A stretch of 64,000 bases of DNA from contig OZ024741.1 in assembly GCA_964016885.1 (NCBI GenBank), positions 14,508,001 to 14,572,000 of the forward strand, written 5' to 3'. A model generated the notes under the pieces. It was not told the DNA's origin and made no database searches. It worked only from the letters and a program-made list of their open reading frames with translations. A program made the translations under genes and the position numbers. This stretch comes from Eledone cirrhosa (taxonomy: Eukaryota). Below, piece by piece: positions 20,035-64,000 of the stretch (position 1 is the first letter of the stretch; every line of letters starts with the position of its first letter).

Positions 20035-20038
<4 letters not shown>
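18404..20038 (-). mobile_element. 1000-bp partial tandem (1.6 units) with one HHR per unit (18590-18714, 19590-19714)
   Basis: Period 1000; minus strand CTGATGA t TTATAAG...CTTATAA t GAAA CAATTG TT; (TA)n flanks. Confidence 0.8.
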
Positions 20039-20117
<79 letters not shown>

Positions 20118-20120
20118 TAT

Positions 20121-20580
20121 AGTTAAAAGAATGGAGGTGTAACACACAAGTTATTATATATTGGTAAACGGAATAGAAAATGCTGACAAATTGTTCACAG
20201 TTGAAAAATGGTTTAATTAGGAATAAAAGAGTATTAGTGATTGTATTGGTTAGTATTCAGTTGTGGTTTTAAGTTTTTAAGTTTTTACCGGTTGCGCATT
20301 TCTAAATGCTTTTCAAAAATAATTTTGAGATAGAGTGTCGCGTGCTGTTTGCTCTGATCTCAGCAAACAGCACGGACACTGATCAGAGCAAACAGCACGG
20401 ACACTCTATCTCAAAATTATTTTTGAAAAGCATTTAGAAATGCGCAACCGGTAAAAACTTAAAAACTTAAAACCACAACTGAATACTAACCCATACAATC
20501 ACTAATACTCTTTTATTCCTAATTAAACCATTTTTCAACCTGTGAACAATTTGTCAACATTTTCTATTCCGTTTACCAAT
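20121..20580. mobile_element. Foldback element with U3-A8 HHR-like motif (20282-20320 -, 20419-20457 +); duplicate at ~22399-22855
   Basis: ~200-bp inverted arms, ~35-nt tail on the left, (TA)n flanks; TTGAAAA gcattt-ag-aaatgc GCAA CCGG TA. Confidence 0.75.
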
Positions 20581-20648
20581 ATATATATATATATATATAA
20601 AAATATATATATATAAAAATATATAAAAATATATATATATATATAGAG

Positions 20649-20759
<111 letters not shown>

Positions 20760-20990
20760 AATCATGTTTTACTGAAAACATAATTTTAATTCTTCATATG
20801 TTTCAATGTAGATGGGCGGGCATACCACGTTTCATACAAGGTACTTGTCACCTCACTCTACATATCTACATATCTATCTATATCTATCTATATAGAAAAT
20901 ATAGAAATGGTTTCTGCAAGACTAGAACTATTTCATTCGTATGAAAACATCAGGAATATCTTGCTGATTTCATATGATTGAAACAGTTTC

Positions 20991-21190
20991 NNNNNNNNNN
21001 NNNNNNNNNNNNNNNNNNNNNNNNNNNNNNNNNNNNNNNNNNNNNNNNNNNNNNNNNNNNNNNNNNNNNNNNNNNNNNNNNNNNNNNNNNNNNNNNNNNN
21101 NNNNNNNNNNNNNNNNNNNNNNNNNNNNNNNNNNNNNNNNNNNNNNNNNNNNNNNNNNNNNNNNNNNNNNNNNNNNNNNNNNNNNNNNNN
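20991..21190. other. 200-N assembly gap flanked by a ~2-kb direct duplication (18967-20990 vs 21191-23243)
   Basis: Near-identical blocks abut the gap on either side. Confidence 0.9.
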
Positions 21191-22262
21191 AATTGAAATA
21201 AAAAAAATAAATATATGCGTGTATAAATTACACACGCATATAGATATTTTCTTAGGCTAAAATCAGAGGTTGTACCTGAATAAGAAACCGCATCTCGTAA
21301 CCGTAGTAAATACGGAAAGTTATGCTTTAAAGGGCAAATGGGAATGTAAATCTCCGGCCGAATTAAGAGTAAAATATAAAACACACGCGGGTTAATTAGT
21401 TATTTCAAAACTAATATCAATTCCTCGTGCTCGTGTAAAGAACTCAATTAATTTAAAAAAATAAATGTATGCATGTAATTATATACATAGGCATATATAT
21501 ATTTTCTTAGGCTAAAAAACAGAGAAGTTACAACCAATAAAAACCACAATATCGCACAACAGTAATAAATACGGAAAGTCAAATTTATAAGGTACCTGGA
21601 AATAAACACCTCTGGCCAATCAAGAGTAAAATATTAATACAATAACAGAGATAGATTAAAGCTAATCTCTGACTGGTAACCATCTCACTCAACAAACATT
21701 AGGTTATATTTTAATATAAACCCAATTTAAGTGTTTGGTGTGCTAACAATATGTATTATGTGGAAAAGCCAGTTGTATTATTTTATGAGATATAATTAAA
21801 GTTAATATATATCACTCTTTGCAAACAATTGTTTCATTATAAGTTTTCTACAAATTCGGAGAATATTTCCAGTTTATGTAGAAGCCTAATATACATTCAT
21901 GTAAGAATATATTTAGGTGGGCGCTTATAAATCATCAGTGGAAGCCCATTAAACTTTGATATAAGAAAAACAAATTTCTTACGGCAGTTAAAAATCGTGT
22001 CTGTTAAGTTGCTCCCTCCCGCATCGAATGACCGGCAAATTTGAAATTCCAGCAGTTTTTGAGGAAGTATTATAGCGTCACTAAGCGGGAAGGGGAGATA
22101 ACTACGATCCACGATAGGAGGAAAAAAATATATATACACGCGGGTTAATCAGTTTTTTCGAAAACATTGTCAATCCAACGTGTTAAGAACTCAATTGAAA
22201 TAAAAAAAATAAATATATGCGTGTATAAATTACACACGCATATAGATATTTTCTTAGGCTAA

Positions 22263-22403
<141 letters not shown>

Positions 22404-22903
22404 AAAGAATAGAGGTGTAACACACAAGTTATTATATATTGGTAAACGGAATAGAAAATGCTGACAAATTGTTCACAGTTGAAAAATGGTTTAATTAGGA
22501 ATAAAAGAGTATTAGTGATTGTATTGGTTAGTATTCAGTTGTGGTTTTAAGTTTTTAAGTTTTTACCGGTTGCGCATTTCTAAATGCTTTTCAAAAATAA
22601 TTTTGAGATAGAGTGTCCGTGCTGTTTGCTCTGATCTCAGCAAACAGCACGGACACTGATCAGAGCAAACAGCACGGACACTCTATCTCAAAATTATTTT
22701 TGAAAAGCATTTAGAAATGCGCAACCGGTAAAAACTTAAAAACTTAAAACCACAACTGAATACTAACCCATACAATCACTAATACTCTTTTATTCCTAAT
22801 TAAACCATTTTTCAACTGTGAACAATTTGTCAACATTTTCTATTCCGTTTACCAATATATATATATATATATAAAAAATATATATATATAAAAATATATA
22901 AAA

Positions 22904-22940
<37 letters not shown>

Positions 22941-22943
22941 AGA

Positions 22944-23013
<70 letters not shown>

Positions 23014-23356
23014 AATCATGTTTTACTGAAAACATAATTTTAATTCTTCATATGTTTCAATGTAGATGGGCGGGCCATACCACGTTTCATACAAGGTACT
23101 TGTCACTCACTCTACATATCTACATATCTATCTATATCTATCTATATAGAAATATAGAAATGGTTTCTGCAAGACTAGAACTATTTCATTCGTATGAAAC
23201 ACATCAGGAATATCTTGCTGATTTCATATGATTGAAACAGTTCTATCACTGTAGAAGCCATTTTTATATACGAAATAAAGATGCCTACAATCTATCAATG
23301 TATTGAGTACCTTTTCTAACTGTGCTTCCCCCTCGAAACAACTCGGGAATCTACAC

Positions 23357-24002: not shown

Positions 24003-26518
24003 AATGTAGGAGGTGAGTTTAATTGTAGTACAATAAAGCAATGCAGATATCGGATAAGAAGCACTCTACAGTTTGTAGGACTGGAGTATACATAATATAT
24101 AAGATCAAAAGATGGTTAAATGAGTTCCATGTATTTTATTATGCGCATTTCAAAAACAAATATCATCATGCAATAACATTTGTGTTTTCATCAGATAAAA
24201 TAGGAGGACATGATATGAAGGTTAAAAACACTTGTGGATAGTGCAGTTTTAAATCAACATATGAAAAGTAGTTTTAGATTGATGTGTGATATTGGCTAAA
24301 AAAAATTTTTTTTTGAGGGGGGGGGGAAGATGAAAAGAGGAGGAGATGAGAGTAAAAAGTGGAGGGGGAGGAGTATAAGGAGGAAGGATGAGATAGGAGG
24401 AGAGATGGCTGATAGAGAGAGAGAGATAGCTTTTATAACTGAGAAAAATATATTGTTTTACATAGAGAGGTTGAAAAACCGTTGGAAGATAATGTATAAA
24501 TTAAAAGAATTGAAAATTAACGAAGAGAAAAATAATGTAAAGTTAAGGTTTGTATATTGAAGGGTTTAATATGTGCGATGAAAAGAAATTGTTAATATGT
24601 ATTAAGAATAATATTTAAGGGTTTAATAATATGTGCGATGGAAAGAAAATGTTAATATGTATTAAGAATAATTTTAAGGGTTTAATAATATGTGCGATGG
24701 AAAGAAAATTGTTGATATGTATTATTAAAAAAACAGAAGTAATGTAAGTAAGGATATATTGTGAGATGAGCATGAATAAGTTAGATGAAAGTGAGAAAAA
24801 AATAATGAATAGAGGATGAATAATCTAACGTAAAAAAAAATGTTTATGTTTACGAAGGATTTTTTCAAGGTCATATAAAGTTAGAATATAGTGTATTGTG
24901 TAATAATTGTTTCTATGTTAGGCACAGTGAGAAAAGGTACAGATTAGGGGTTAGAAATTAAAAGAAAAAGAAAAGAAAAGGAAAAGGAAGAAAGGGAAGT
25001 GATGAATAGGAATGATATAGAATATGATAAATAACTTTGAAATAAGGTAGAAAGATGGGTATATTTTTAAAGAAGTATATATATATATATATATATATAG
25101 ATAGATATGTGCCTTTGAGAAAAGGATTCTGAATTGATAAAGTTTAGGATATTAGCTGTATACTTTATGGAAAGTTCTGTGGAATTTATGCAAGCAGATA
25201 GAAAACAAGTCAGTGCGTCTATTTATTATAGAATCTATTTACTATCTTAAATTGCAACATAGTTAACCTTAATATTATTAAGAACAATATACGTAATCTC
25301 TTTAACCAACATAACCTAAAAATTGAATTTGATAACAGCATCAAACTAGCTAATCTCTTGGGTGTATCTCTTAATCTTGACACTGGCCTATATTACCCTT
25401 ACCATAAAAACAATGAGAACCTAAATTATGTTAATTTTAAATCTAACCACCCTACTAATATTAAGAATGCTATAGTTAGTAATATTGGAAAAAGAATATC
25501 TAACCTATCTTCTAATAAAAACATCTTCGATGCTAACGCCAATTACTATAATAACGCGCTTTCTAAAGCCGGCTATCCCGATAAAATCAAATATAATAAA
25601 GAAACAAATTCTAGAAAATCTTACAGTAGAATAATTAATCATGATCATTCCAATAACTTTAATAAAAGACCTAGATACAAAACATAATCTGGTATAATGC
25701 TCCTTTCTCCATCTCTATTAATAATAATATTCCTAAATTATTCTTTAGTGCCTTAAATAAATGCTTCCCTCCCTCACATATCTATAGTAAAATATTTAAC
25801 AAACACACTATCAAATTTTACTATTCGACATCCTTCAACATTTCCAACATCATCTCTAAACACAACAATAAAATACTAAATACTAAATCTCTTCCTTCCA
25901 ACACTGAATATCATAATAATAGTAATAGTACTCCCGACGTCATTGTAAACCCTAGGCTAATTTCTGCAAACCCAAATACAACGTCAAACACAACTTCGCT
26001 AAATGTTCTTAATCCCATTCTAAATCAAGAAAATATTATTCCTATCGCAAATAACTTCTCCAATCCAATTCCTTCTATAGATAACACTAGGTCACTCGTT
26101 AATAATCTCTCTAATCGCAATTGCAATTGCCCTGCTAAAAATAAATGTCCTCTCAACAACCATTGTCTTGATAAAAACTTAATTTATGAATGTAAAGTTA
26201 TAACTGACACCAATTCCTTCACCTATTTTGGTTCAACTTCCACCAATCATCATTCGTCTTTTAAATATAAACTTAAAAGAACCAACACGGCTCTCTCAGG
26301 ACTCATATGGTCCTTGAAAGACAAAAATATTAAATATAACATCTCTTGGAAAAATCTCTGTCTGAATGAAAAATTTACCATTATATCTAATTTAGATTCT
26401 ATAATAAATAGAGGCACTGACTTGTTTTCTATCTGCTTGCATAAATTCCACAGAACTTTCCATAAAGTATACAGCTAATATCCTAAACTTTATCAATTCA
26501 GAATCCTTTTCTCAAAGG

Positions 26519-26597
<79 letters not shown>

Positions 26598-27572
26598 TTC
26601 TTTAAACATATACCCATCTTTCTACCTTATTTCAAAGTTATTTATCATATTCTATATCATTCCTATTCATCACTTCCCTTTCTTCCTTTTCCTTTTCTTT
26701 TTTTTTATTTTAATTTCTAACCCCTAATCTGTACCTTTTCTCACTGTGCCTAACATAGAAACACTTATTACACAATACAATATATTCTTACTTTATATCA
26801 CCTTGAAAAAATCCTTCGTAAACATAAACATTGTTTTTGACGTTAGATTATTGATCCTCTATTCATTATTTTTTTCTCACTTTCATCTAACTTATTCATG
26901 CTCATCTCACAATATATCCTTACTTACATTACTTCTGTTTTTTTAATAATACATATCAACATTTTCTTTCCATCGCACATATTATTAAACCCTTAAAATT
27001 ATTATTAACATTTTCTTTCCATCGCACATATTATTAAACCCTTAAATATTATTCTTAATACATATTAACAATTTCTTTTCATCGCACATATTTAAACCCT
27101 TCAATATACAAACCTTAACCTTACATTATTTTTCTCTTCGTTAATTTTCAAATTCTTTTAATTTATACATTATCTTCCAACGGTTTTTCAACCTCTCTAT
27201 GTAAAACAATATATTTTTCTCAGTCATAAAAGCTATCTCTCTCTCTCTATCAGCCATCTCTCCTCCTATCTCATCCTTCCTCCTTATACTCCTCCCTCTC
27301 CACTTTTTACTCTCATCTCCTCATCTTTTTCATCCTTTCCAACCTCCCCACCTAAAAAAAAAATTTTTTCCCCAATATCACACATCAATCTAAAACTACT
27401 TTTCATATGTTGATTTAAAACTGCACTATCCACAAGTGTTTTTAACCTTCATATCATGTCCTCCTATTTTATCTGATGAAAACACAAATGTTATTGCATG
27501 ATGATATTTGTTTTTGAAATGCGCATAATAAAATACATGGAACTCATTTAACCATCTTTTGATCTTATATAT
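24003..27572. mobile_element. 5'-truncated, head-to-head Penelope-like (Hydra-clade-like) insertion, second subfamily
   Basis: Minus arm 24003-25238 (3' UTR + ORF end); plus arm 25239-27572 (decayed ORF from FTILNCN + 3' UTR); homologous to 36491-43610; HHRs 24133-24201 (-) and 27466-27534 (+). Confidence 0.9.
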
Positions 27573-27654
<82 letters not shown>

Positions 27655-28182: not shown

Positions 28183-28185
<3 letters not shown>

Positions 28186-28393
28186 TGGTTACACAACAGT
28201 TAGTTCACCATACCGAGAACAATTGTACCACCTTAGCGTATCCTCACCTCGTAAGGACTACGAGCTAAGGATCCGCTAATTTGAAACAATTGTTCTCGGT
28301 ATGGTGAACAAACTTTTGTGTAACCACTTCTACCTAACTCGTCCTTTGGACTGAGTGCTCTACCACAACGGATATTACCTTCCAGTGTTCTAC

Positions 28394-28398
<5 letters not shown>
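28183..28398. mobile_element. Short foldback element with degenerate HHRs and a right-hand tail, (TA)n flanks
   Basis: aagtggttacac...ccgagaacaattg / caattgttctcgg...gtgtaaccactt; related to 7888-7950. Confidence 0.7.
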
Positions 28399-30433: not shown

Positions 30434-30530
30434 ATCACCTTCACCACTAATTGATTTGACAGATGTCTTTAACCCATTGATACCAAATATTATTTGGTCA
30501 GTAGTTCGTGCATATACGTACATATATATA

Positions 30531-31077
<547 letters not shown>

Positions 31078-36435: not shown

Positions 36436-36494
<59 letters not shown>

Positions 36495-37662
36495 GGAGGT
36501 GAGTTTTATTGTAGTACAATAAAGCAATGCAGATATCGGATAAGAAGCACTCTACAGTTTGTGGGACTGGAGTATGCATAATATAAGATCAAAAGATGGT
36601 TAAAGGAGTTCCATATATTTTATTATGCGCATTTCAAAAACAAACATCATCAAGCAATAATATTTGTGTTTTCATCAGATAAAACAGGAGAACATGATAT
36701 GAAGGCTAAAAAAACACTTGTTGATAGTGCAGTTTTTAATCAACATATGAAAAGTGGTTTTAGATTGATGTGTGATATTGGGAAAAATATTTTATTTAGA
36801 GAGGGGGGGGGAGGATGAAAAGGGAAGGAGATGAGAGGGAGAGATGGGTGATAGAGAGAAAGAGATAGTTTTTATAACTGAGAGGAGATATATTTTTTAC
36901 ATAGAGGGGTTGAAAACCGTTGGAAGATACTGTATAAATTAAAAATTTTGAAAATTAACGAAGGGAGGATATGTGCGAGGAAAAAATATTTTATTTAGGG
37001 AGCGGGGGGGGATGAAAAAAAGGGGGGAGGAGATGAGAGTGAAGGTGGAGAGGGAGAGATGGGTGATAGAGAGAAAGAGATAGTTTTTATAACTGAGAAA
37101 AAGATATATTGTTTTAATATAGAGAGGTTGGGAACCGTTGGAAGATAATGTATAAATTAAAGGAATTTGAAAATTAACGAAGGGAAATTATGTATGAAGA
37201 TAGAGAGAAAAAAATAATAATTGTGGGTGAATATTCTAACGTCAAAAGAAGAAATGTATGTATTGTGGCAATTTCAAAATTAGCGAAGAGAAAAAAAAAT
37301 GTTAAGGTTTGTGTGTAGAAGGATTTGAGAAAAATAATGTGAAGTTAAAGTTTGTATATTGAATTGATATGTATTAATAATGAGTTCGTTGATGGGGAGA
37401 AAAAAATAATAATAAATTAAGGATGAAATTGAGATTAAAAAGATTTATGATAGAGAGAAAAAATAATAATGATTGCGGATGAATATTCAAAATGTCAAAA
37501 ACAAATGTTATTATTTTACGAGAAGATAGAATGAGGGTAATGAGTAAACGAGTATTATAGAGTGTATAATGCCCTTTAAAGTAAGGTAGATGGGTATATT
37601 TTAAAGAGGTGTATGTATATGTGCCTTTGAGAAAAGATTCTAAATTGATAAAGAATTGAATA

Positions 37663-40065
37663 TTAACTGTATACTTTGTGAAAAGTTCTATGGAATTTAT
37701 GCAGGCAGATAGAAAACAAATCTGAGCGTCTATTTATTATAGATTCTAGGTTAGAGATAATGGTAAATTTTTCATTTAGGCAAATATTACAGATTTTAGA
37801 TAGAGAGCTGTTCAAGTATGAGGATGCAGAAGAAATCTTTTTCCAAAAGATGTTATATTTAATGTTTTTGTCTTTTAAGGACCATATGAGTTCTGAGAGA
37901 GCAGTGTTAGTTCTTTTAAGTTTGTATTTGAAAGATGAATGATGATTATAGAGACGAGCTTTAAAAGAGGTGGAAGTGGAGCCAAAATAGGTGAAGGAAT
38001 TGGTGCTAGTTATAATTTTACATTCATAAATTAAGTTTTTATCGAGGCAATGGTTGTTGAGAGGACATTTATTTTTAATGCGGCAGTTGCAATTAGAGAG
38101 ATTATTAATGAGTGATCTAGTGTTATCTATAGAAGGAATTGGATTGGAGAAGTTGTTTGCGATAGGAATAATAGGAATAATAGTTTCTTGATTTAGAGTT
38201 GGATTATGAACATTTAGCGAAGTTGTGTTTGACGTTGTATTTGGGTTTACAGAAGTTTGCCTAGGGTTTACAATGACGTCGGGAGTACTATTACTGTTAT
38301 TATGAAATTCAATATTGGAAGGAAGAGATTTAGTATTTAATATTTTGTTGTTGTGTTTAGAGATGATGTTGGAAATATTGGAGGATGTAGAATACGAAAA
38401 TTTGATGGTGTGTTTGTTAAATATTTTACTATAGATATGTGAGGGAGGGAAGCATTTATTTAAGGCATTAAAAAATAATTTAGGAATATTGTTATTAATA
38501 GAGATGGAGAAAGGAGCATTATACCAGATTATGTTTTTGTATCTAGGTCTTTTATTAAAATTATTGGAATGGTCATGATTAATTATTCTACTGTAAGTTT
38601 TCCTAGAATTTGTTTCTTTATTATATTTGATTTTATCTGGATAGCCGGCTTTAGAAAGTGCGTTATTATAGTAATTGGCGTTAGCATCAAAGATGTTTTT
38701 ATTAGAAGATATGTTAGATATTCTATTTCCAATATTATTAACTATAGCATTCTTGATATTGGTAGGATGGTTAGATTTAAAGTTAACATAATTAAGATTC
38801 TCATTGTTTTTATGGTAAGGGTAATATAGGCCAGTGTCAAGATTAAGAGATACATCCAAGAAATTAGCTAGTTTGATACTATTATCAAATTCAATTTTTA
38901 GGTTATGTTGGTTAAAGAGATTACGTATATTGTTCTTAATAATATTAAGTTTAACTATATTGCAATTTAGGATAGTAAAGAGTCCATCGTCACGATAAAT
39001 TCCACCGCGAAGTTGAGGAATTTTCCGACTCAAAGAGTTCAAAATGAAGATACCAATTAAATCAGTCAATTGGGATGAATCGGATGCTCCCATTGTGATG
39101 TCGAAGTTGTTAGAGGTATCGGCTCTGGTCCAATATTCGTTGTTGAACTCTAGGATGGTTTTACGTGCGGTGAGGATAATGTGAAGTTCATCTGTGGTGA
39201 TGTCAGAATATTTAAGTGCGAAAGATAGAGCATTATTGAGAAGTGAAGGCGAAATGGAGGAATAGTAGCTGGCAATATCGAATTGAATAAATTTTAGTTT
39301 GTTTTTATTATCCAATTTGTTGAACCAGCCAATCACTTCAGAAGTACCAAACCATAAATTTAGGTTTAAAGAAGAGCAATTAGAACTAACCTGTGGGATA
39401 ATCCTATCCAAGATGGCTTTACTAACAACCCCCAGATCAGATTTAGAGGGGGCGATTAATCTAACAGATAGTTCAGTGCGAAAATTGTTTTTGTGATCCT
39501 TGAGATTTATCCTCGGAGTTCTTGGGAGGAATGGTTCGGTCTTTTTTTCAATGCCAAGTTTTGACATAATCTCATAGGCTTCAAGGTTTATGCATTCTAA
39601 ATTTTCATGGTTGGTTTTACGATACTTTTTCCTAAGTTCCTTTAGGATAAGGTTGTTATAATTATCCTTGGAAATACCATATAGGTTATTGGTTTTGTCA
39701 GAGTGGACTAAAACATTTTTTGAGGAATTTAGGTTAGAGATTGTGTTCTTGAGATTTACAAGGTGCTCTTGTCCTTTGTAAGGGTATCTCTTGAATTTAA
39801 GATGTTTTATTATTTTAGTTAATTCTTCCTCGAATTGTGCTAGATTTTTGTTGGAAGGAGGATTTCGTCTAGAATTAAAAAGATGATCGAGGAAGTTGTG
39901 TTCTTTGGTATGAAAGTTCCCTTTTAGGCGCTGGTCATAGAAATAGGCTGTCCATCTAAGTCTTCTTACGAAGGAGTCAGTTTTTTCAATAAGGAGTTTG
40001 GCGAATTCGGATTTACTAGGTATAGGAATGTCTTTAGTTGAATTGGTTATGTTGTAATAATCCAT
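37663..40065 (-). CDS. Intact ~800-aa PLE protein: RT + CxC/Cys linker + C-terminal GIY-YIG endonuclease (Hydra-clade-like)
   Basis: KDIPIPSK...LRW N-terminus; FIQFDIASYY, ITMGA, IYRDDGL, NFLDV; CNC-x5-CPL-x3-C; LIY..YFG, R..H; CNICLNEK; likely ATG at 40065 (frame open from 40125). Confidence 0.92.
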   Translation of the reverse strand: MDYYNITNSTKDIPIPSKSEFAKLLIEKTDSFVRRLRWTAYFYDQRLKGNFHTKEHNFLDHLFNSRRNPPSNKNLAQFEEELTKIIKHLKFKRYPYKGQEHLVNLKNTISNLNSSKNVLVHSDKTNNLYGISKDNYNNLILKELRKKYRKTNHENLECINLEAYEIMSKLGIEKKTEPFLPRTPRINLKDHKNNFRTELSVRLIAPSKSDLGVVSKAILDRIIPQVSSNCSSLNLNLWFGTSEVIGWFNKLDNKNKLKFIQFDIASYYSSISPSLLNNALSFALKYSDITTDELHIILTARKTILEFNNEYWTRADTSNNFDITMGASDSSQLTDLIGIFILNSLSRKIPQLRGGIYRDDGLFTILNCNIVKLNIIKNNIRNLFNQHNLKIEFDNSIKLANFLDVSLNLDTGLYYPYHKNNENLNYVNFKSNHPTNIKNAIVNNIGNRISNISSNKNIFDANANYYNNALSKAGYPDKIKYNKETNSRKTYSRIINHDHSNNFNKRPRYKNIIWYNAPFSISINNNIPKLFFNALNKCFPPSHIYSKIFNKHTIKFSYSTSSNISNIISKHNNKILNTKSLPSNIEFHNNSNSTPDVIVNPRQTSVNPNTTSNTTSLNVHNPTLNQETIIPIIPIANNFSNPIPSIDNTRSLINNLSNCNCRIKNKCPLNNHCLDKNLIYECKIITSTNSFTYFGSTSTSFKARLYNHHSSFKYKLKRTNTALSELIWSLKDKNIKYNIFWKKISSASSYLNSSLSKICNICLNEKFTIISNLESIINRRSDLFSICLHKFHRTFHKVYS

Positions 40066-40155
40066 GTTGTAGAAGAAGAGGTGAAGGACCATCAAAAGGT
40101 ATCCAATATGAGAGTAAGCGCTCAACCGTTAAGGAGCAAGTTAATGTAGGAGGTG

Positions 40156-42525
40156 AGACATTCCTATACCTAGTAAATCCGAATTCACCAAACTCCTTAT
40201 TGAAAACACTGACTCCTCCGTAAGAAGACTTAGATGGACAGCCTATTTCTATGACCAGCGCCTAAAAGGGAACTTTCATACCAAAGAACACAACTTCCTC
40301 GATCATCTTTTTAATTCTAGACGAAATCCTCCTTCCAACAAAAATCTAGCACAATTCGAGGAAGAATTAACTAAAATAATAAAACATCTTAAATTCAAGA
40401 GATACCCTTACAAAGGACAAGAGCACCTTGTAAATCTCAAGAACACAATCTCTAACCTAAATTCCTCAAAAAATGTTTTAGTCCACTCTGACAAAACCAA
40501 TAACCTATATGGTATTTCCAAGGATAATTATAACAACCTTATCCTAAAGGAACTTAGGAAAAAGTATCGTAAAACCAACCATGAAATTTAGAATGCATAA
40601 ACCTTGAAGCCTATGAGATTATGTCAAAACTTGGCATTGAAAAAAAGACCGAACCATTCCTCCCAAGAACTCCGAGGATAAATCTCAAGGATCACAAAAA
40701 CAATTTTCGCACTGAACTACCTGTTAGATTAATCGCCCCCTCTAAATCTGATCTGGGGGTTGTTAGTAAAGCCATCTTGGATAGGATTATCCCACAGGTT
40801 AGTTCTAATTGCTCTTCTTTAAACCTAAATTTATGGTTTGGTACTTCTGAAGTGATTGGCTGGTTCAACAAATTGGATAATAAAAACAAACTAAAATTTA
40901 TTCAATTCGATATTGCCAGCTACTATTCCTCCATTTCGCCTTCACTTCTCAATAATGCTCTATCTTTCGCACTTAAATATTCTGACATCACCACAGATGA
41001 ACTTCACATTATCCTCACCGCACGTAAAACCATCCTAGAGTTCAACAACGAATATTGGACCAGAGCCGATACCTCTAACAACTTCGACATCACAATGGGA
41101 GCATCCGATTCATCCCAATTGACTGATTTAATTGGTATCTTCATTTTGAACTCTTTGAGTCGGAAAATTCCTCAACTTCGCGGTGGAATTTATCGTGACG
41201 ATGGACTCTTTACTATCCTAAATTGCAATATAGTTAAACTTAATATTATTAAGAACAATATACGTAATCTCTTTAACCAACATAACCTAAAAATTGAATT
41301 TGATAATAGTATCAAACTAGCTAATTTCTTGGATGTATCTCTTAATCTTGACACTGGCCTATATTACCCTTACCATAAAAACAATGAGAATCTTAATTAT
41401 GTTAACTTTAAATCTAACCATCCTACCAATATCAAGAATGCTATAGTTAATAATATTGGAAATAGAATATCTAACATATCTTCTAATAAAAACATCTTTG
41501 ATGCTAACGCCAATTACTATAATAACGCACTTTCTAAAGCCGGCTATCCAGATAAAATCAAATATAATAAAGAAACAAATTCTAGGAAAACTTACAGTAG
41601 AATAATTAATCATGACCATTCCAATAATTTTAATAAAAGACCTAGATACAAAAACATAATCTGGTATAATGCTCCTTTCTCCATCTCTATTAATAACAAT
41701 ATTCCTAAATTATTTTTTAATGCCTTAAATAAATGCTTCCCTCCCTCACATATCTATAGTAAAATATTTAACAAACACACCATCAAATTTTCGTATTCTA
41801 CATCCTCCAATATTTCCAACATCATCTCTAAACACAACAACAAAATATTAAATACTAAATCTCTTCCTTCCAATATTGAATTTCATAATAACAGTAATAG
41901 TACTCCCGACGTCATTGTAAACCCTAGGCAAACTTCTGTAAACCCAAATACAACGTCAAACACAACTTCGCTAAATGTTCATAATCCAACTCTAAATCAA
42001 GAAACTATTATTCCTATTATTCCTATCGCAAACAACTTCTCCAATCCAATTCCTTCTATAGATAACACTAGATCACTCATTAATAATCTCTCTAATTGCA
42101 ACTGCCGCATTAAAAATAAATGTCCTCTCAACAACCATTGCCTCGATAAAAACTTAATTTATGAATGTAAAATTATAACTAGCACCAATTCCTTCACCTA
42201 TTTTGGCTCCACTTCCACCTCTTTTAAAGCTCGTCTCTATAATCATCATTCATCTTTCAAATACAAACTTAAAAGAACTAACACTGCTCTCTCAGAACTC
42301 ATATGGTCCTTAAAAGACAAAAACATTAAATATAACATCTTTTGGAAAAAGATTTCTTCTGCATCCTCATACTTGAACAGCTCTCTATCTAAAATCTGTA
42401 ATATTTGCCTAAATGAAAAATTTACCATTATCTCTAACCTAGAATCTATAATAAATAGACGCTCAGATTTGTTTTCTATCTGCCTGCATAAATTCCATAG
42501 AACTTTTCACAAAGTATACAGTTAA
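40156..42525 (+). pseudogene. Inverted copy of the PLE ORF lacking the first codons, with a 1-nt deletion near 40585
   Basis: Starts at DIPIP; catgaaattt versus catgaaaattt; the 634-aa ORF differs only by S>P. Confidence 0.9.
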
Positions 42526-43503
42526 TATTCAATTCTTTATCAATTTAGAATCTTTTCTCAAAGGCACATATACATACACCTCTTTAAAATATACCCATCT
42601 ACCTTACTTTAAAGGGCATTATACACTCTATAATACTCGTTTACTCATTACCCTCATTCTATCTTCTCGTAAAATAATAACATTTGTTTTTGACATTTTG
42701 AATATTCATCCGCAATCACTATTATTTTTTCTCTCTATCATAAATCTTTTTAATCTCAATTTCATCCTTAATTTATTATTATTTTTTTCTCCCCATCAAC
42801 GAACTCATTATTAATACATATCAATTCAATATACAAACTTTAACTTCACATTATTTTTCTCAAATCCTTCTACACACAAACCTTAACATTTTTTTTTCTC
42901 TTCGCTAATTTTGAAATTGCCACAATACATACATTTCTTCTTTTGACGTTAGAATATTCACCCACAATTATTATTTTTTTCTCTCTATCTTCATACATAA
43001 TTTCCCTTCGTTAATTTTCAAATTCCTTTAATTTATACATTATCTTCCAACGGTTCCCAACCTCTCTATATTAAAACAATATATCTTTTTCTCAGTTATA
43101 AAAACTATCTCTTTCTCTCTATCACCCATCTCTCCCTCTCCACCTTCACTCTCATCTCCTCCCCCCTTTTTTTCACCCCCCCCCCGCTCCCTAAATAAAA
43201 TATTTTTTCCTCGCACATATCCTCCCTTCGTTAATTTTCAAAATTTTTAATTTATACAGTATCTTCCAACGGTTTTCAACCCCTCTATGTAAAAAATATA
43301 TCTCCTCTCAGTTATAAAAACTATCTCTTTCTCTCTATCACCCATCTCTCCCTCTCATCTCCTTCCCTTTTCATCCTCCCCCCCCCTCTCTAAATAAAAT
43401 ATTTTTCCCAATATCACACATCAATCTAAAACCACTTTTCATATGTTGATTAAAAACTGCACTATCAACAAGTGTTTTTTTAGCCTTCATATCATGTTCT
43501 CCT

Positions 43504-43572
43504 GTTTTATCTGATGAAAACACAAATATTATTGCTTGATGATGTTTGTTTTTGAAATGCGCATAATAAAAT
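43504..43572 (+). ncRNA. HHR in the PLE 3' region (mirror copy 36617-36685 -)
   Basis: gttttat CTGATGA [~16-bp stem II] GAAA T-GCGC-A TA ataaaat. Confidence 0.85.
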
Positions 43573-43603
43573 ATATGGAACTCCTTTAACCATCTTTTGA
43601 TCT

Positions 43604-45100
<1,497 letters not shown>

Positions 45101-53843: not shown

Positions 53844-55147
53844 CAGAGTGGGGCATAAAATCTGTTACAAAATAAAATGCAAATAGTTCTTGAATAAAAC
53901 ATTTATTTCCAGATCTGACTCCAACAAATACTAAGTAATATACTATTAAACAACTGCACAAAAATCTATTCGAAATGCTTTTCTCTAGCTCTCACTACCG
54001 CTCGAAGTCTTCTAGGAAAGTCTTCGATGGCTGCACGAAGAGTTTCCATGGCTATTTTCTCCCATACTTTATTCAGTTTTGATTTTAGAGTTTCAATATT
54101 TTACCTAGGAGTAGAGCAGGCTTCACTCTCAAGGATTGACCATAAAGAAAAATCGAGAGGGTTGAGATCAGGTGATGTGGGAGGCCACTCTTCCTTACTG
54201 ATCCATGCAGGACAATGGTCTCAACACCACTGTTGTGTTACGCGAGCAGTGTGGCTTGTCGCTCCATCTTGTTGGAGAGTCAAAATGTCATCGCCATAAA
54301 CAGATATGCATCATGGCATCATTGCTCCTTCCAAAATATCCTTTATGTAAAATTCTTTGTTAATTTTAACTCCTTCAGGCACAAAAATCAGAGGAGACTT
54401 CCCTCTTTCAGAAATGGCTGCCCAAACCATCACTGATTCTGGTTTCTGAGTTCTGAACACTTTTCCTACACTTGAAGGAATCGATTTGTGACTTTTTGCA
54501 AGTACTCCATAATTTTGATGATTGTGAGACTGCTGCACAGTGAATAACTTCTCATCTGTAAAGATGATGTTTTGCAGCGTGCCATCTTTGATATGGTTCA
54601 ATAACAGTTTACTTCTGGAGAGCCTCTTTTCAATTGTGGCTGCAGAAAGAAGCTGCATCTTTTGGAACTTATAGGGTGACATCCCCAGATCATCTCGACA
54701 TATACTGCGCATAGTTCTCGGCGATGTTTCTGCTTCTTCTGCCATTTTTCTATGGACCTTCTTGGATTACGCCTTATTTTTTCCCTCACACTTTTAACGA
54801 GTTTTGGTGTTCTTGAGGTGCGAGGGCGTCCGGATTCAGATCTGTCTTTGGTCGAGGAAGTTTCCTTAAATCGATCGATTGTCCTTTTGATCAACATTCT
54901 ATTGATCTTAAGAGTTTTCCCCAGTTTAAATATCTTGGGTGGAGTCAGGCCTTTTTCATGCTTCTCTATTATGAACTTTCTTTTCAATTCTATGGACATT
55001 GCAAATTGTTAATGGTGTAATGTTCTGAAAAATGGTTAATATGGTTATAGTGCATGGATTTGATACAAATATATTAGTTATATTAGCAGCATAATGTATG
55101 TTTAAAATTGATTTAAAACTTTGGAACAGGAATTATGCCCCACCCTG
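53844..55147 (-). mobile_element. Full-length decayed Tc1/mariner, maT (DD37D) family
   Basis: TA TSD, ~28-bp imperfect TIR cag[a/g]gtggggcataa; IIFTDEK, VMVWAAIS, QQDGATSH...SPDLNPLD with 37 residues between the last two Asp; frameshift and stops. Confidence 0.9.
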
Positions 55148-55470: not shown

Positions 55471-56353
55471 GTTGTGTATAATGGTAGCTATGGTGCTTCC
55501 ATAGGCAGTATGCCAAAATTAGCACTCGATATTCAGCAGAATAGAGTGGAAATAGTATAAAGAAAACGAAAAATCAGTGATGCATCTGGACTTAATTTAT
55601 TGCGCGTTACAATTGTTTCGCCGGCAGGTAGCTCGAGACATGGTCCTTGTATGGATCTGGCTGATTCTACTTCTGCAGGTTCTTTCAGACACGGGTATTT
55701 CGTTCGGAGCAAATTTTATTACTGGGGTGTTATCATCAAAATACACCCTCAAAATCCCTACTTCCACTCTTGTCATGCCATTGGCTGCTTTTACTCCACG
55801 CCATCACAAGTTCTGGTCCCTATTTACTGCCGCACAGGTCATCAGCCATTTTCCGTCCGACACATTTCAATGGAGTCATGCTGGGTTCAGTACCTCACAC
55901 GTCTGTGCACACTTCAGAGTAAGCACCCACACATACTAATTTACACACACATATACACACACATGCAGACAAAGATACATTCATGCATACACACACGTAC
56001 GCCTACATGCGCAGATACCCCCACCCCCATACATATACATATATGTATATATACACACACACTCTCTCCCTCACTTCCACGGACCCAGTCACACCCACTT
56101 GTAGATACATATCGCCACAAGCCTTATAACGGCTGCTTAGTTCGCGCCATGTAACCGGTGGGATAAGCATGGCCTACTCAAACATACACATATATACATA
56201 CGCGCGCACACATACATACGCACAACCTAATATACATTTATATATATATACACACTCATACACAGACATATATACATACACACATACATACACATACATA
56301 CATATACACACACATATGTATATATATATATATATATATACATACACACACAG

Positions 56354-56397
<44 letters not shown>

Positions 56398-56804
56398 TCA
56401 CACATGCCCACACATACATACAAAATACACATACGTACACAAAATTACTTCCACACGTACATACACACACATATATATATATACATACATCTATATACAC
56501 AAAAAAACAACCTAACATGTATACGCACAGCCACATATATACATACATATACCTACGCATATGCAGACATATATACATCTACATATGCATACGCACGCGT
56601 GCTGCCACATGCATACACCTGCACATATGCATATTTGCCTACACACACATGTGCTTCCAGATATACATATATAAACAAAACCGTAAATTAAAAATTAAAA
56701 ATACATTATATAATAAAAAACACAATAAACCATAAAATAACGGTAAAATACCATAACATAAAATATAAAATATAAGGTATAAAATATCAATATATTAAAA
56801 AATA

Positions 56805-56887
<83 letters not shown>

Positions 56888-59181
56888 CACACACACACAT
56901 GTACACAGATTCATACATACATATACGGATATATACAAAGGATATGTGATAGAGTAATACAAAAAGATTAATAGTAATAATAAAAAGCATATATACTCCA
57001 TACATAATCATCCGTACACATTCCTGTGAGATACACATAAACACATACATGTATGCACAAATATACATACACACATATAGAGGCCCACATATTCATACAC
57101 CCGCACCCACACACACATATATATATATACACATATACATATATATACACACTTACTCACCCACACAGACACACCTACTCATACGTGGCTATACGTACAT
57201 ACGCACACATATATAGACATACTTATATATATTCATATATACACACATATATATACACACATATATATACACACATATATATACACACATATATATACAC
57301 ACATATACACACATTCTGCCACATATGTACATACATGCACATGTCTGCACATACACGCGCTTATAAGCTCATGCACACATGCACCCATGCCCATATACAC
57401 ATATACACCCCCCAGCACCCACCCACGTATATATATATACATCTACACACACACATACATATACCTACGCACAGGTCCACACACAAAACACGCGAATATA
57501 AACACAATATGATAATAAAATAAAATAAATAAATAAATTTACAATATTTTAGAGTACATTAAAATCTGCATGTAACTGCATAAATAGGTACAAGAAAAAA
57601 AGAGGTAAAATAAAAAAAACGGGTAAAATAAAAAAAAACAGGGGGAGGGGAGGTACAGGAGAAGGTGCGTGTATCCATGTTATATACTACACACAGGTAG
57701 TATGAGGTGCAAACTTGTGTCCATATATAGAACAGGTAACAGTAACAGAACAATAATAGAACAATAATTGTTTCTACTATTGGCACAAGGCCAGCAATTA
57801 CCCAGTACATTACTGGTACTTTATTTTATCGACCCCGTAAGGATGAAAGGCAAGTTAACCTGGGCGGGATTTGAACTCAGATCGTAAAGGGATGTAACTA
57901 TGCTGGAAAGCATGGCGTCCGACTGTCTACCTATACTGCCAATCCACCGCCCTACAATAATAGAACAATAATGACAGTAATAATCATTACTCCATTCCAG
58001 GGCGTAGGGAGTGCCTTGGTCTTTCAGGTCCCACACCAGGTCCGCTAACCTAGTGGAGTGCCTTTTGCTACGGTCCCTGAAGGAATTCGTGTGATTATAC
58101 ATCCGCGATTTAAAGGTCGTGGATGTTGCGCCGGTGTAGGTGCGATGTGCGTTTTGGGTTGTAACCACACACTTGTATATTAAGTCTTTCATCAAGCATT
58201 TTCCCTGTAGGGGCACCGGGTGCCCGCTCTACAATTACAAGTTCTGCTGTCAGTTCTTGTGCATCCGATGTCCGGGCCTCGATCTGTTATGGCCCTCTCA
58301 AGGTTCCCAGGGTGTTGTTCCGCCGACACTGTTGTCTCCTCCATGCCACTATTTCCCTCTCGGTGCTGGACCATATCGCCCTCCACGGGCGCTCTGGTCG
58401 CCTCGAGGGCCGGGTTGTCATTTGAGGGTAGGTCCATGGGTGGTTCTCCCCGCTCCGAAAGACGGTCACTCTGTCGCCGCGATTGACGGCCAGTGTGCGC
58501 CATCTTCACCGCGTTAGTTTTAACCATGTAGTCGGCCATATTAGGCGCCGTGGAGAAGGAAAATTTCACCGTATGGCGGTTGAAGATTTTGTGGTACTTG
58601 TTTGTCGTCGGAAAGCACTCATCCAACGCTCGGAAGAAAAGTCCTGGTACGTTGGTGCGTACATGCTTGGAGTAAGGCGCATTGAACCAAGTAATGGCCT
58701 TAGATCTGTTCCTTCGTGTGCGTGGATTCTTGTTGTTGTGTCCAGGACTCGATGTCCGTCCAGTGCTCGGCCCAACCACAATTTCATCCCGTGTGTTGTC
58801 TCTGTCTATTTGCCCGCTATGTGCGTCGGGGTTATGTTCTACAGTTATAAAATTACGTCGTTCTATGGGGTCATCTATACGTCTATTCCCCTTAGGTCAA
58901 TGTGATGCTGCTGTCCGTGTTGTAGCACTACAACCAGACTGGTCGTGCTCCCTGGCGTGTGCCCCGTTCGTATTTGTCGAAGTCCTGTCCGTGGTCCCAG
59001 TTGCCGCGGTGTATTCAGTATGCGTGCCAGGTCCATGCCTCCGCGTACTGGGTGGTCTGGCTCTTATGGGTGCCTTTGTCCTACCTCCGGTCGGCCCTGT
59101 GTCATTAATGCTAGTTGTGTTGTTATTTGTGTTCCTGGATACTGCTACCGGGTCAATTCTTCTACCTATGGTTCTTTTTTT

Positions 59182-59228
<47 letters not shown>

Positions 59229-60110
59229 ATGTACGTGTGTATGTAATGTTGTGTACGTATGTGTAATTTGTATGTATGTGTGGGCATTTGTGAGTGTATG
59301 TATATATATATATGTATGTATGTATGTATATATATATATATATACATATGTGTGTGTATATGTATATATGTGTATGTATGTGTGTATGTATATATGTCTG
59401 TGTATGAGTGTGTATATATATATAAATGTATATTAGGTTGTGCGTATGTATGTGTGCGCGCGTATGTATATATGTGTATGTTTGAGTAGGCCATGCTTAT
59501 CCCACCGGTTACATGGCGCGAACTAAGCATCCGTTATAAGGCTTGTGGCGATATGTATCTACAAGTGGGTGTGACTGGGTCCGTGGAAGTGAGGGAGAGA
59601 GTGTGTGTGTATATATACATATATGTATATGTATGGGGGTGTGTGTGTCTGCGTATGTAGGCGTACGTATGTGTATGCATGAATGTATCTTTGTCTGCAT
59701 GTGTGTGTATATGTGTGTGTAAATTAGTATGTGTGGGTGCTTACTCTGAAGTGTGCACAGACGTGTGAGGTACTGAACCCAGCATGACTCCATTGAAATG
59801 TGTCGGACGGAAAATGGCTGATGACCTGTACGGCAGTAAATAGGGACCAGAACTTGTGATGACGTGGAGTAAAAGCAGCCAATGGCATGACAAGAGTGGA
59901 AGTAGGGTTTTAAGAGGGTGTATTTTGATGATAACACCCCAGTGATAAAATTTGCTCCAAACGAAATACCCGTGTCTGAAAGAACCTGCAGCAGTAGAAT
60001 CAGCCAGATCCATACAAGGACCATGTCTCGAGCTACCTGCCGGCGAAACAATTGTAACGCGCAATAAATTAAGTCCAGATGCATCACTGATTTTTCGTTT
60101 TCTTTATACT
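55471..60110. mobile_element. Head-to-head insertion of a third, GC-richer Hydra-like PLE family
   Basis: Inverted arms ~55553-56490 / ~59185-60110; minus-strand ORF remnant 57985-58800 (ITWFNAPYS, CNCRAGTRCP, LIY..YTG, RMYNH); HHRs 55603-55693 (-) and 59971-60061 (+). Confidence 0.85.
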
Positions 60111-60119
60111 ATATATATA

Positions 60120-60154
<35 letters not shown>

Positions 60155-60156
<2 letters not shown>

Positions 60157-61631
60157 CTTAATTGTTTAAGCGTCAGTCATACAAAAGTGAGTTACAAACG
60201 AAACGAAATTTAATTTCGTTTCGTTATTTGTTTTTATCGTCTCCGTTGAACCGGTACTTACTCACACTCTATGCAAATTAGTCTGCCCACTACTAATTTT
60301 CATAGAAAAAGCATATAACGATATGTGCTTTTACGATTCTCTAGAGAGGCCGGAAGATAGGTAAATATTGCTGATGAGTTGTAACAACAACGAAACTAGT
60401 TCAATATTCCTTGTCTGGCTTTCTGGAGAATAGAGGAGAGGTGTTTCCTCAAAAACCAGTATGACTCTAAAAACCGGTTTGTCTGTGTGTTTACATACAG
60501 AATAGCTGGCCACTCACAGTAAAGTGACCAGTGAAAAAACTTGGTACACCTACATATGTATACGTGTGTGTATTCATATACATACTAGTATTTCAGTATA
60601 CATATATGGATGTACATCTTTAACTTAATTGTTTAAGCGTCAGTCATACAAAAGTGAGTTACAAACGAAACGAAATTTAATTTCGTTTCGTTATTTGTTT
60701 TTATCGTCTCCGTTGAACCGGTACTTACTCACACTCTATGCAAATTAGTCTGCCCACTACTAATTTTCATAGAAAAAGCATATAACGATATGTGCTTTTA
60801 CGATTCTCTAGAGAGGCCGGAAGATAGGTAAATATTGCTGATGAGTTGTAACAACAACGAAACTAGTTCAATATTCCTTGTCTGGCTTTCTGGAGAATAG
60901 AGGAGAGGTGTTTCCTCAAAAACCAGTATGACTCTAAAAACCGGTTTGTCTGTGTGTTTACATACAGAATAGCTGGCCACTCACAGTAAAGTGACCAGTG
61001 AAAAAACTTGGTACACCTACATATGTATACGTGTGTGTATTCATATACATACTAGTATTTCAGTATACATATATGGATGTACATCTTTAACTTAATTGTT
61101 TAAGCGTCAGTCATACAAAAGTGAGTTACAAACGAAACGAAATTTAATTTCGTTTCGTTATTTGTTTTTATCGTCTCCGTTGAACCGGTACTTACTCACA
61201 CTCTATGCAAATTAGTCTGCCCACTACTAATTTTCATAGAAAAAGCATATAACGATATGTGCTTTTACGATTCTCTAGAGAGGCCGGAAGATAGGTAAAT
61301 ATTGCTGATGAGTTGTAACAACAACGAAACTAGTTCAATATTCCTTGTCTGGCTTTCTGGAGAATAGAGGAGAGGTGTTTCCTCAAAAACCAGTATGACT
61401 CTAAAAACCGGTTTGTCTGTGTGTTTACATACAGAATAGCTGGCCACTCACAGTAAAGTGACCAGTGAAAAAACTTGGTACACCTACATATGTATACGTG
61501 TGTGTATTCATATACATACTAGTATTTCAGTATACATATATGGATGTACATCTTTAACTTAATTGTTTAAGCGTCAGTCATACAAAAGTGAGTTACAAAC
61601 GAAACGAAATTTAATTTCGTTTCGTTATTTG

Positions 61632-61637
<6 letters not shown>
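60155..61637 (+). mobile_element. Retrozyme-like array: three apparently identical 467-bp units + ~82 nt, one HHR per unit
   Basis: aatattg CTGATGA gttgt-aaca-acaac GAAA CTAG TT caatatt at 60364-60408, 60831-60875, 61298-61342; (TA)n flanks. Confidence 0.92.
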
Positions 61638-61702
<65 letters not shown>

Positions 61703-62327
61703 TAAAAAATAAAAAATAGAATTATAAAAATTACAACACAACAGGCAAAACATAATAGTACCACTGATGAATTCACATGTGTGTGATGAAAGAGCTTTGA
61801 TAGACTATATATATATATAATTATATCTATATTTTTAGCTGTTGTCAATCAATGGTACACATTGATTGCCAGCTAAATTACCTATAGAGATATAAAATAT
61901 ACAGAAGCGAAAACCAACTCAAACCAAACGGTAAGTGTGTTTTATTATATATTTCTGGCAATACTATAACAATATGACCCTCCCCAACTATAACAATATG
62001 GTCGGATAATTGGCGACGAAACCGAGGCATACAAATCTGAGGGCTGTCGTATTTTCCGTAGCAAACATTTGCACCGAAGATATGTGTCGTCAGTTCCAAA
62101 AAGTGTGGTTGTTCCTACACAAGCCGTCACCACTTAAAACAAAACTTTGTGTGGGTAGTTCAACATCAGTTCACTCCCTGAACTTTTGTTGGACACTCAC
62201 ACGTCGCATACCGACGGAGAGTTATCATATATATAGTAATAATAATAAATTTGAAGACTAAAATCCAAATAGGGCTCTATAAGGATAAATATATATCAGA
62301 TATATAAGAACAATAGAGCAAATATTT

Positions 62328-62955: not shown

Positions 62956-63460
62956 TAAAAGATCGGAGGCCGTATTTAGTTAGTTCTGGTTTATTTAAAA
63001 CTCCGTTATACATATTTCACTGAGGACTATCAGTTTAGATAGCCTGAGCTCTTCAGACGGCAAAACCTAAAATAAGCATTGGCAGTTCCTAATAAACGTT
63101 TAAATTTGGCAAAATAGGTCCGCCTATCGAAGAAACAACACCACACCAACGGCCCCCTGTATCATGAAAAGAAAATCTTTTTCGGTGAGATTATTAGATT
63201 TTTCCAAATTTAAGTGTTTCTTAGGAACTTTTAATGTTTATTTTAGGGTTTGCCGTCTGAATAGCTAAGGCTATCTAAACTGATAGCCCTCAGTGATATT
63301 GTGTAAAATGGAGTGTTAAATAAACCTGAAACAACTGAATGTGGCCTCCGATCTATTATTAATATATAACGCTCCGTCTTGTACCATTTATACAGGTCGT
63401 TGATCACTTCTTTTTATCTGCTTCCGCACAACCCTGTTCTGTTAACCCAATATATATACA
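62951..63460. mobile_element. Older foldback element with HHR (63003-63060 - intact core; right arm decayed) and right-hand tail
   Basis: ccgt CTGAAGA gctcaggctatc..gatagtcctcagt GAAA TATGTA TA acgg. Confidence 0.72.
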
Positions 63461-64000
63461 GATCTTACAGGCTTATGGAATCCCCAAGAAGCTAGTGGAC
63501 CTGATATCACTGCACTACACCAACACTGAAGCCCAATTCATTACACCTGATGGGATGACAGAGTTCTTTGAGATACTGGCTGGAGTGCTCCAGGGAGATA
63601 CATTGGCTCCCTACCTTTTTATCATCGTATTGGACTATTGTATGCGCCTTGCACTGGAGAAACACCAGGACTCTGGCTTTACTGTAGCACCGGCTCGGAA
63701 CAGGAGAGTTAAGGCGAAAAAGATATCAGATGCTCAATTTGCCGACGACATAGTTTTGGTGACAAATACAGTGAAGGAGGCAGAGGATTTGATGCAGGAG
63801 GTTGAGACTGTGTCGATGAGTGTGGGGCTGAGAATGAATGAGACTTATACAAAATATCTGGTAGAGAATGTTGAGAAGCCAGAGGGGATCACTAATGTAG
63901 GCGGGAAGCCGCTAGAATTGGTTGAGGACTTCCTGTATTTGGGAGCAAAGATTGGGAATACGGAATATGATGTGATTTAGAGGAAGAGCAAAGCCTGGGC
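63461..64000 (+). mobile_element. RTE-group LINE reverse transcriptase fragment
   Basis: AYGIP, GVLQGDTLAPYLF, QFADD, EDFLYLG. Confidence 0.85.

Follow-up and report, generated by a model that had tools for sequence, protein, structure and literature searches.

A young three-unit retrozyme array in a (TA)n tract of Eledone cirrhosa and its probable insertion by a Penelope-type enzyme

The window, here the whole 64,000-nt stretch of contig OZ024741.1 that was analysed, contains a trimeric array that is a very young insertion of a known element class, so that the gain lies in mechanistic support and not in a new system. The array is best read, with a little more than even confidence, as a recent non-LTR retrozyme copy made by the enzyme of a Penelope-type element (PLE) copying about three times round a predicted 467-nt RNA circle. 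The parts of this reading differ in strength: retrozyme identity is highly probable from the sequence, PLE-driven insertion is probable, and a circular RNA template is moderately favoured. Every sequence-level feature of non-LTR retrozymes that was looked for is present, target duplication being unreadable in TA, and cleavage and circle are predicted.

The insertion, its ends and its relatives

60154..61638, plus strand: whole trimer insertion, an exact repeat of period 467
60154-60620, 60621-61087 and 61088-61554, plus strand: three identical 467-bp units (self-comparison)
61555-61638, plus strand: partial fourth unit of 84 nt (self-comparison)
60111..60155, no strand: left (TA)n target tract, its left part also being the candidate 23-nt target duplication of the PLE-derived element next to it
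61636..61704, no strand: right (TA)n target tract, the presumed primer for reverse transcription
61570..61638 (equivalent 60636-60704), plus strand: 69-nt 'tail' between two fixed 3' ends (loose ends in run X1), with a strong hairpin inside

The trimer spans 1485 nt or 3.18 units, and at a period of 467 none of its 1018 lagged positions is mismatched. The unit has 35.5% GC and is non-coding, with a longest stop-to-stop frame of 62 codons and, read as a circle, a longest ATG frame of 30 codons. Both flanks are pure TA, in which a target duplication is not readable, and no flanking TA is caught between the units. The three identical non-coding units inside (TA)n described in the initial annotation are therefore exact. 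Its terminal redundancy of about 82 nt measures 84 nt including TA microhomology (2 nt at the 5' junction and 3 nt at the 3' junction, counted within the overhang), the earlier figure lying within this ambiguity. The annotation had taken the redundancy as a sign of copying from circular or multimeric RNA; such copying is indeed needed if the trimer was reverse transcribed, but the 84-nt overhang is more plausibly a fourth unit truncated at its 5' end than a terminal repeat by design. The trimer is without an inverted arm, an inverted 5' copy being frequent and not obligatory in PLE-mobilised elements, and no strand-change joint is among those listed for the family contigs of the public runs compared with the unit. 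The 5' end at 60154 lies 15 nt upstream of the family's short 3'-end site. About 120 nt to the right of the trimer, a degenerate hammerhead-like core (61757-61806) retains catalytic words and stem II with a poor stem I, and ends at a short TA run.

A sister retrozyme family of 472/476 bp occupies another site in the window:

43642..44990, no strand: sister family, two direct units on the minus strand, fold-back at 44582/44583 and one inverted arm
43989 (minus), 44465 (minus) and 44694 (plus): sister-family hammerheads (motif scan)

The two families align along the whole unit. When they are aligned, their short ends lie no more than about 3 nt apart and so do their long ends, and the homology that had been proposed between the 3' end of the trimer and that of the 472-bp family holds, the former aligning to the sister end at 43642. 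The sister tail measures 57 nt and is found at the left end only. Unit identity is not universal among the retrozymes here, since the sister direct units differ at 7 sites; measured against the inverted arm these differences are spread over both direct units, a distribution that would fit mutation after insertion. The sister family folds back (44582) a few nt from the long-end site, and its inverted arm ends where the inner unit has its short end, the one without a tail. A very small hairpin occurs naturally at the inversion centre (44574-44592), which would fit nascent cDNA folding back and priming itself.

Parts of the 467-bp unit are present in 20 of the 24 listed public runs, none of them on record as RNA, a listing that carries no information on expression. 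Runs X1, X4 and X5 (two of them at low depth) were compared in detail together with raw-read run X21, which shares a study with another unit-containing run and gave no matching reads in the roughly 1/100 of the run that was sampled. The library kind of run X1 is not on record; its contig volume of 1381 million letters suggests genomic DNA. This run holds 1033 family contigs, 531 at 99% identity or more, 335 at 95-99%, 155 at 90-95% and 12 below. Loose ends into TA occur at 60704 in at least 12 contigs and at 60635 in at least 4 (among the best 9 of 43 rows), so that the fixed 3' end of the trimer has 12 contigs entering TA at the identical position. The array is thus short with family-wide fixed ends, and not the long satellite blocks without fixed ends against which the annotation had set it; long arrays may exist elsewhere in the genome. 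In run X4 the unit forms one head-to-tail contig, and the head-to-tail joint, going back 467, assembles in runs X4 and X5. Summed contig depth in these runs is not equated with copy number.

One base, G60905, is common to all three trimer units, while A stands at this site in 99.6% of X1 depth and in all X4 and X5 depth. Run X1 may come from another population or species, and G60905 may not be private to the trimer. A-to-I editing is not claimed as its source, this being a single site in a change spectrum that is not clearly skewed. The spread over 20 unit-containing runs with 17 organism or sample labels is not accepted as a sign of horizontal transfer. Only three of these runs were compared, two of them at low depth, and two runs of organism C from the same study are without unit words, so that diet or carry-over explains the spread equally well. 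Pattern scans found no match with the family pattern in metagenomes and no relatives among viral contigs; six metagenome matches to a looser pattern were set aside, since none had stems that pair, a tandem arrangement or true similarity to the window.

The hammerhead ribozyme and the predicted circle

60353..60424, plus strand: extended type I hammerhead of unit 1, HH9 E 4.6e-6 (48-kb search), predicted cut 60401/60402 after GUU
60820..60891, plus strand: extended type I hammerhead of unit 2, HH9 E 4.5e-8, predicted cut 60868/60869
61287..61358, plus strand: extended type I hammerhead of unit 3, HH9 profile match and core motif, predicted cut 61335/61336
60402..60868, plus strand: predicted cut-to-cut monomer and candidate 467-nt circle, fold 66% paired and -146.5 kcal/mol as a circle
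60271..60278 (also 60738 and 61205), plus strand: octamer ATGCAAAT, in a block conserved with the sister family

All three trimer units carry a hammerhead core with a 7-bp stem I, a 5-bp stem II and CTAG, as annotated, and these type I hammerheads in tandem units support the retrozyme-like, non-LTR identity that had been proposed. The description 'textbook minimal' did not survive: the fold is an extended type I, matched by Rfam Hammerhead_HH9 over model positions 1-77 of 77 in an alignment that takes in the stem I internal loop. The match scores 37.7 bits (E 4.5e-8), under the gathering score of 52; at gathering thresholds Rfam returns no match in the window, and HH9 appears only in E-value mode, in which microRNA matches were also returned and dismissed as noise from TA-rich or palindromic sequence. 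A relaxed type I motif occurs in none of 3000 dinucleotide shuffles of the unit. The minimal PLE hammerhead, which is without helix III and loop 1-loop 2 elements, does not describe the trimer ribozyme.

The cut triplet of the trimer is GUU, not GUC, and GUU is a weaker cleavage triplet than GUC. The sister family has GUA, and GUC is found in 7.6% of X1 depth and in all X4 depth. The annotation ranked the array as the best candidate for an active circular RNA, a candidacy against which speak both its GUU, where some relatives carry GUC, and the Xenopus retrozyme dimers, mostly uncleaved in vitro. Within the parts of the literature searched, GUU is listed as an active hammerhead cleavage site and no cleavage-rate data for it were found. 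A motif scan of the antisense strand of the unit found no hammerhead, and there is therefore no sign of viroid-like symmetric replication.

The trimer and the sister family do not differ in the hammerhead core, the hexamer of loop II or the internal loop of stem I, and a loop I-loop II tertiary contact is inferred from the sequence. Six of the 12 core pairs are changed on both sides, a number reached by none of 500 shuffles and compared with 0-1 in slid controls (the four rows being only two lineages). In run X4, where GUC is at full depth, the stem II pair 60846/60857 is swapped on both sides, so that the helices are kept by compensatory change at two divergence depths. RNAalifold on two sequences gave two-sided changes at 18 of 78 pairs, a count given little weight because the method selects pairs that fit both sequences. 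Helix III of the trimer consists of 2 bp closed by the palindrome; its probability in the predicted monomer is 0, whereas pairing of one copy with another through the palindrome is predicted at -4.8 to -8.2 kcal/mol, and by this modelling helix III would likely need dimers.

The fold of the predicted circle has a z of -9.9 against 40 shuffles, and stems I and II form in it with probability 0.63-0.99, leaving the ribozyme free. Among 17 variant sites, 12 fall at paired positions of the predicted circle and pairing is kept at 10, against a 54% baseline for transitions, which lends it slight support. One X1 contig carries a hairpin variant at 60976-60996 in which several changes preserve the pairing and make it perfect.

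The octamer ATGCAAAT is located within a hairpin stem, in the most conserved non-ribozyme block of both families. It is present in 44 of 3000 shuffles of the unit and lost from one of three sister-family copies; it is possibly a promoter element and is put forward as a lead only. The promoter of newt satellite 2 reportedly includes an octamer. That satellite uses an snRNA-type promoter (cited in PMC2220036), at which the trimer only hints through the octamer, and retrozymes seem to be without promoters in the accessible part of a review (PMC7761336).

Penelope-type elements in the window

36492..43608, no strand: young Hydra-clade PLE, an inverted pair in (TA)n, arms 99.8% identical, 89-nt tail on one end, own hammerheads
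37663..40128, minus strand: frame of the young Hydra-clade PLE, without a Pfam match
55471..60110, no strand: PLE-derived inverted element, the second of its kind and broken, adjoining the trimer's TA tract on the left, with an 83-nt one-sided tail

The initial annotation overlooked both the Penelope-type end signature and the intact Hydra-clade PLE. Judged by its sequence, the young intact PLE is a candidate for the type of driver that moves the retrozymes. An older second inverted copy lies at 24003-27575, with hammerheads at 24202 (minus) and 27465 (plus); the Hydra-clade PLE hammerheads have a long stem II region, unlike that of the retrozyme. The broken Hydra-like element at 55471-60110 has 47-48% amino-acid identity in pieces, half a hammerhead core only, and a 23-nt candidate for a target duplication, recognisable by a TT that breaks the TA tract.

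A left-end-only extension of 39-89 nt is found in six of the seven fold-back insertions checked in the window, the seventh not being resolved. The set includes the young PLE (89 nt), the second copy, the second PLE-derived element and the sister retrozyme (57 nt). In the accessible text of Frangieh 2024 (PMC11167929), in vitro work places the PLE tail between two internal sites of RT initiation, and this signature is called unique to PLEs. Tails of the retrozymes here measure 57-69 nt against the 30-40 nt found in the consulted print sources, and those of the local PLEs 83-89 nt. As to the target, the parts of Craig 2021 (PMC8557442) that were available give (TA)n as that of the Hydra and Naiad clades, with (TA)n insertion in almost all Hydra-clade families. 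The two fixed internal 3' ends, the one-sided tail and the (TA)n target, as in PLEs, are what argue for a PLE-type insertion of the trimer. Compared with both window PLEs, the 467/476 tails and units have no similarity above shuffles except TA-rich sequence (tail p 0.15-0.97). Since no PLE terminal-repeat homology was found with these two, the claim is limited to insertion in the manner of a PLE passenger and does not extend to descent from any given PLE.

Each of the two retrozyme insertions lies in a TA tract that also borders a PLE-derived element, at the end of that element without a tail (43604-43641 and 60111-60155); with n=2, this could be shared targeting or linked insertion. The left arm of the young PLE (about 40144-40157) extends some 14 nt into the tail end of the previous copy. 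Copying may tend to stop on returning to the start region, other window PLE copies ending elsewhere. Five small non-coding fold-back elements (20121-20579, 22400-22855, 28184-28396, 30529-30820 and 8070-8281), are possibly other PLE passengers. No hammerhead was found in them; TA tracts flank the first three, and a tail of 39-40 nt is present on one side of the first two.

Other elements are also present. A LINE-like element at 10400-15708 has reverse transcriptase frames as well as ORF1-like and endonuclease-like ones, interrupted by stops, and Pfam places RVT_1 frames at 13360-15708 and 63363-63980, which we take to belong to L1/Tx1-like or RTE-like LINE clades. Fragments at 54311-55008, with only a weak PAX match in Pfam, resemble a Tc1/mariner transposase in our reading. 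For two retroelements of the window the closest named proteins come from Argonauta hians (38% and 63%), which makes an octopod cephalopod the likely host. Within 18405-23242 about 2 kb are duplicated at 95% identity on either side of an N gap, likely an assembly overlap.

Template, driver and meaning of the trimer

In the course proposed for the trimer, a tandem copy would be transcribed, and its paired hammerheads would cut after GUU, GUC or GUA with the ACUAGU palindrome as a shared helix III, a predicted step for which motif and covariation are observed. A host ligase, judging from other retrozymes, would close the monomer. A PLE endonuclease-RT, presumed from the two observed fixed ends, would then nick (TA)n and start cDNA inside the RNA at either of two sites 69 nt apart, nt 303 and 234 of the monomer. 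The RT would cross the ligation junction repeatedly, stop after 3.18 rounds and join TA via 2-nt microhomology; the product of this step is observed and the route conjectural. The 3' end of the trimer would accordingly mark the start of cDNA synthesis, at nt 303 of the 467-nt monomer. From there a cut linear monomer yields only 303 nt of cDNA, and 1485 nt therefore needs three intact ribozyme junctions, which could be crossed on a ligated circle, on an uncut multimer or by exact template jumps. Of these, the circle and the uncut multimer are the most likely templates. Identical units with the rare G60905 in a heterogeneous family favour one template molecule, hence the circle. A more elaborate version, in which the circle bears its own snRNA-type promoter and two start signals for a Hydra-clade Penelope RT and is inserted as multimers into TA, is put forward only tentatively.

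That the same element was copied by a PLE-type enzyme from an uncut linear multimer of a tandem master, its hammerheads slow or silent, is an unlikely but serious alternative. An anole PLE in vitro has unprocessed RNA as its main template, a preference that favours the uncut multimer over the circle, and its ribozyme mutants still insert, as far as the available text of Frangieh 2024 (PMC11167929) goes; in the portion of the Li 2026 preprint consulted, 8 of 9 Xenopus retrozyme dimers are uncleaved in vitro. The GUU triplet of the trimer, the monomer helix III predicted not to form and the 7 differing sites of the sister direct units point the same way. The master would, however, need four identical units, which merely moves the question back, and the helices have been retained through compensatory change at both divergence depths. 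Retrozymes of coral, mussel and axolotl accumulate as circles in what was seen of Cervera 2020 (PMC7229834), and the sister differences, lying in both direct units relative to the inverted arm, fit post-insertion mutation.

Much less probable is that a single retrotransposed monomer was triplicated in place by unequal crossover or slippage, or that similar units were made uniform by the assembly. The available part of Li 2026 discusses tandem repeats that arise when PLE terminal sequence is amplified locally, and the window does contain a gap and a noisy duplicate near 19-23 kb; against this, no flanking TA is trapped between the units, and the head-to-tail form assembles in runs X4 and X5 as well. 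Wholesale homogenisation by the assembler is unlikely, other arrays keeping their unit differences (25/2461, 8/531 and 33/585 lag mismatches), as does the sister family. Least probable is mobilisation of the unit by a LINE (L1/Tx1-like or RTE-like) rather than a PLE. LINEs prime on AT-rich nicks and can produce 5' inversions, which counts for this explanation, as do the RVT_1 frames in the window, and LINEs are named as the alternative in the passages seen of Cervera 2020 (PMC7229834). The trimer is, however, without poly(A) or a shared LINE 3' end, its two internal fixed ends stand against LINE priming from the RNA 3' end, and the one-sided tail and full overlapping fold-back match the window PLEs and the published PLE signature.

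Like animal non-LTR retrozymes, the trimer is made of non-coding, AT-rich tandem units of a few hundred bases, each with a type I hammerhead; it has a strongly self-paired predicted circle with the ribozyme free, and it co-exists with PLEs. At 467 bp its unit is just over the 150-450 bp range in the accessible text of PMC7229834 and inside the 51-972 bp of the preprint by Li, Clavereau and Pollet 2026 (10.64898/2026.07.22.740005). In those sources cleavage and circles are reported, whereas the trimer is known here from its letters; it has no PLE terminal-repeat homology (two window PLEs compared), and double fixed 3' ends in (TA)n were not found described in the consulted parts of the 2020 and 2026 papers. 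Axolotl HHR_Amex1 and newt satellite 2 resemble it in their weak helix III, a palindromic cap expected to be dimeric, and extended stem I and loop II, as far as their partial descriptions show; axolotl and newt hammerheads cleave as dimers in the available text of PMC7229834. They differ in host and in their shorter unit. HHR_Amex2 shares with the sister family a U-U mismatch at the base of stem II. Hydra-clade PLEs and their passengers, in the sources partly available, share with the retrozymes here the (TA)n target, partial tandem arrangement, optional one-end tail and hammerhead motif, and with the sister family the inverted 5' copy; the retrozymes differ from these PLEs in lacking a protein, in an extended rather than minimal ribozyme, and in having no sequence common with the two local PLEs.

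No paper describing cephalopod retrozymes was found, subscription journals and supplements being largely outside the search, and no description of PLE tails on retrozyme insertions; 'tail' has no occurrence in the text of the Li 2026 preprint, supplements again excepted. Cervera and de la Pena (2020, PMC7229834) put forward PLEs as the agents that mobilise retrozymes, and the preprint by Li, Clavereau and Pollet (2026, 10.64898/2026.07.22.740005) argues for this on the basis of co-occurrence and the phylogeny of terminal repeats, judging from the parts of both that were seen. To that published case of co-occurrence and PLE terminal-repeat similarity the trimer locus adds the evidence of insertion ends, namely a pair of fixed 3' ends inside the unit, a tail on one side and insertion into TA, all in common with a nearby intact PLE. 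The questions addressed are which enzyme drives animal retrozymes and whether the circle is a transposition intermediate. The locus names an RNA, two start sites and a candidate protein, and the driver and template questions become directly testable. If the proposed reading is true, the intact PLE and the two retrozyme families would be the first matched set of driver and passengers for reconstituting retrozyme mobilisation in vitro.
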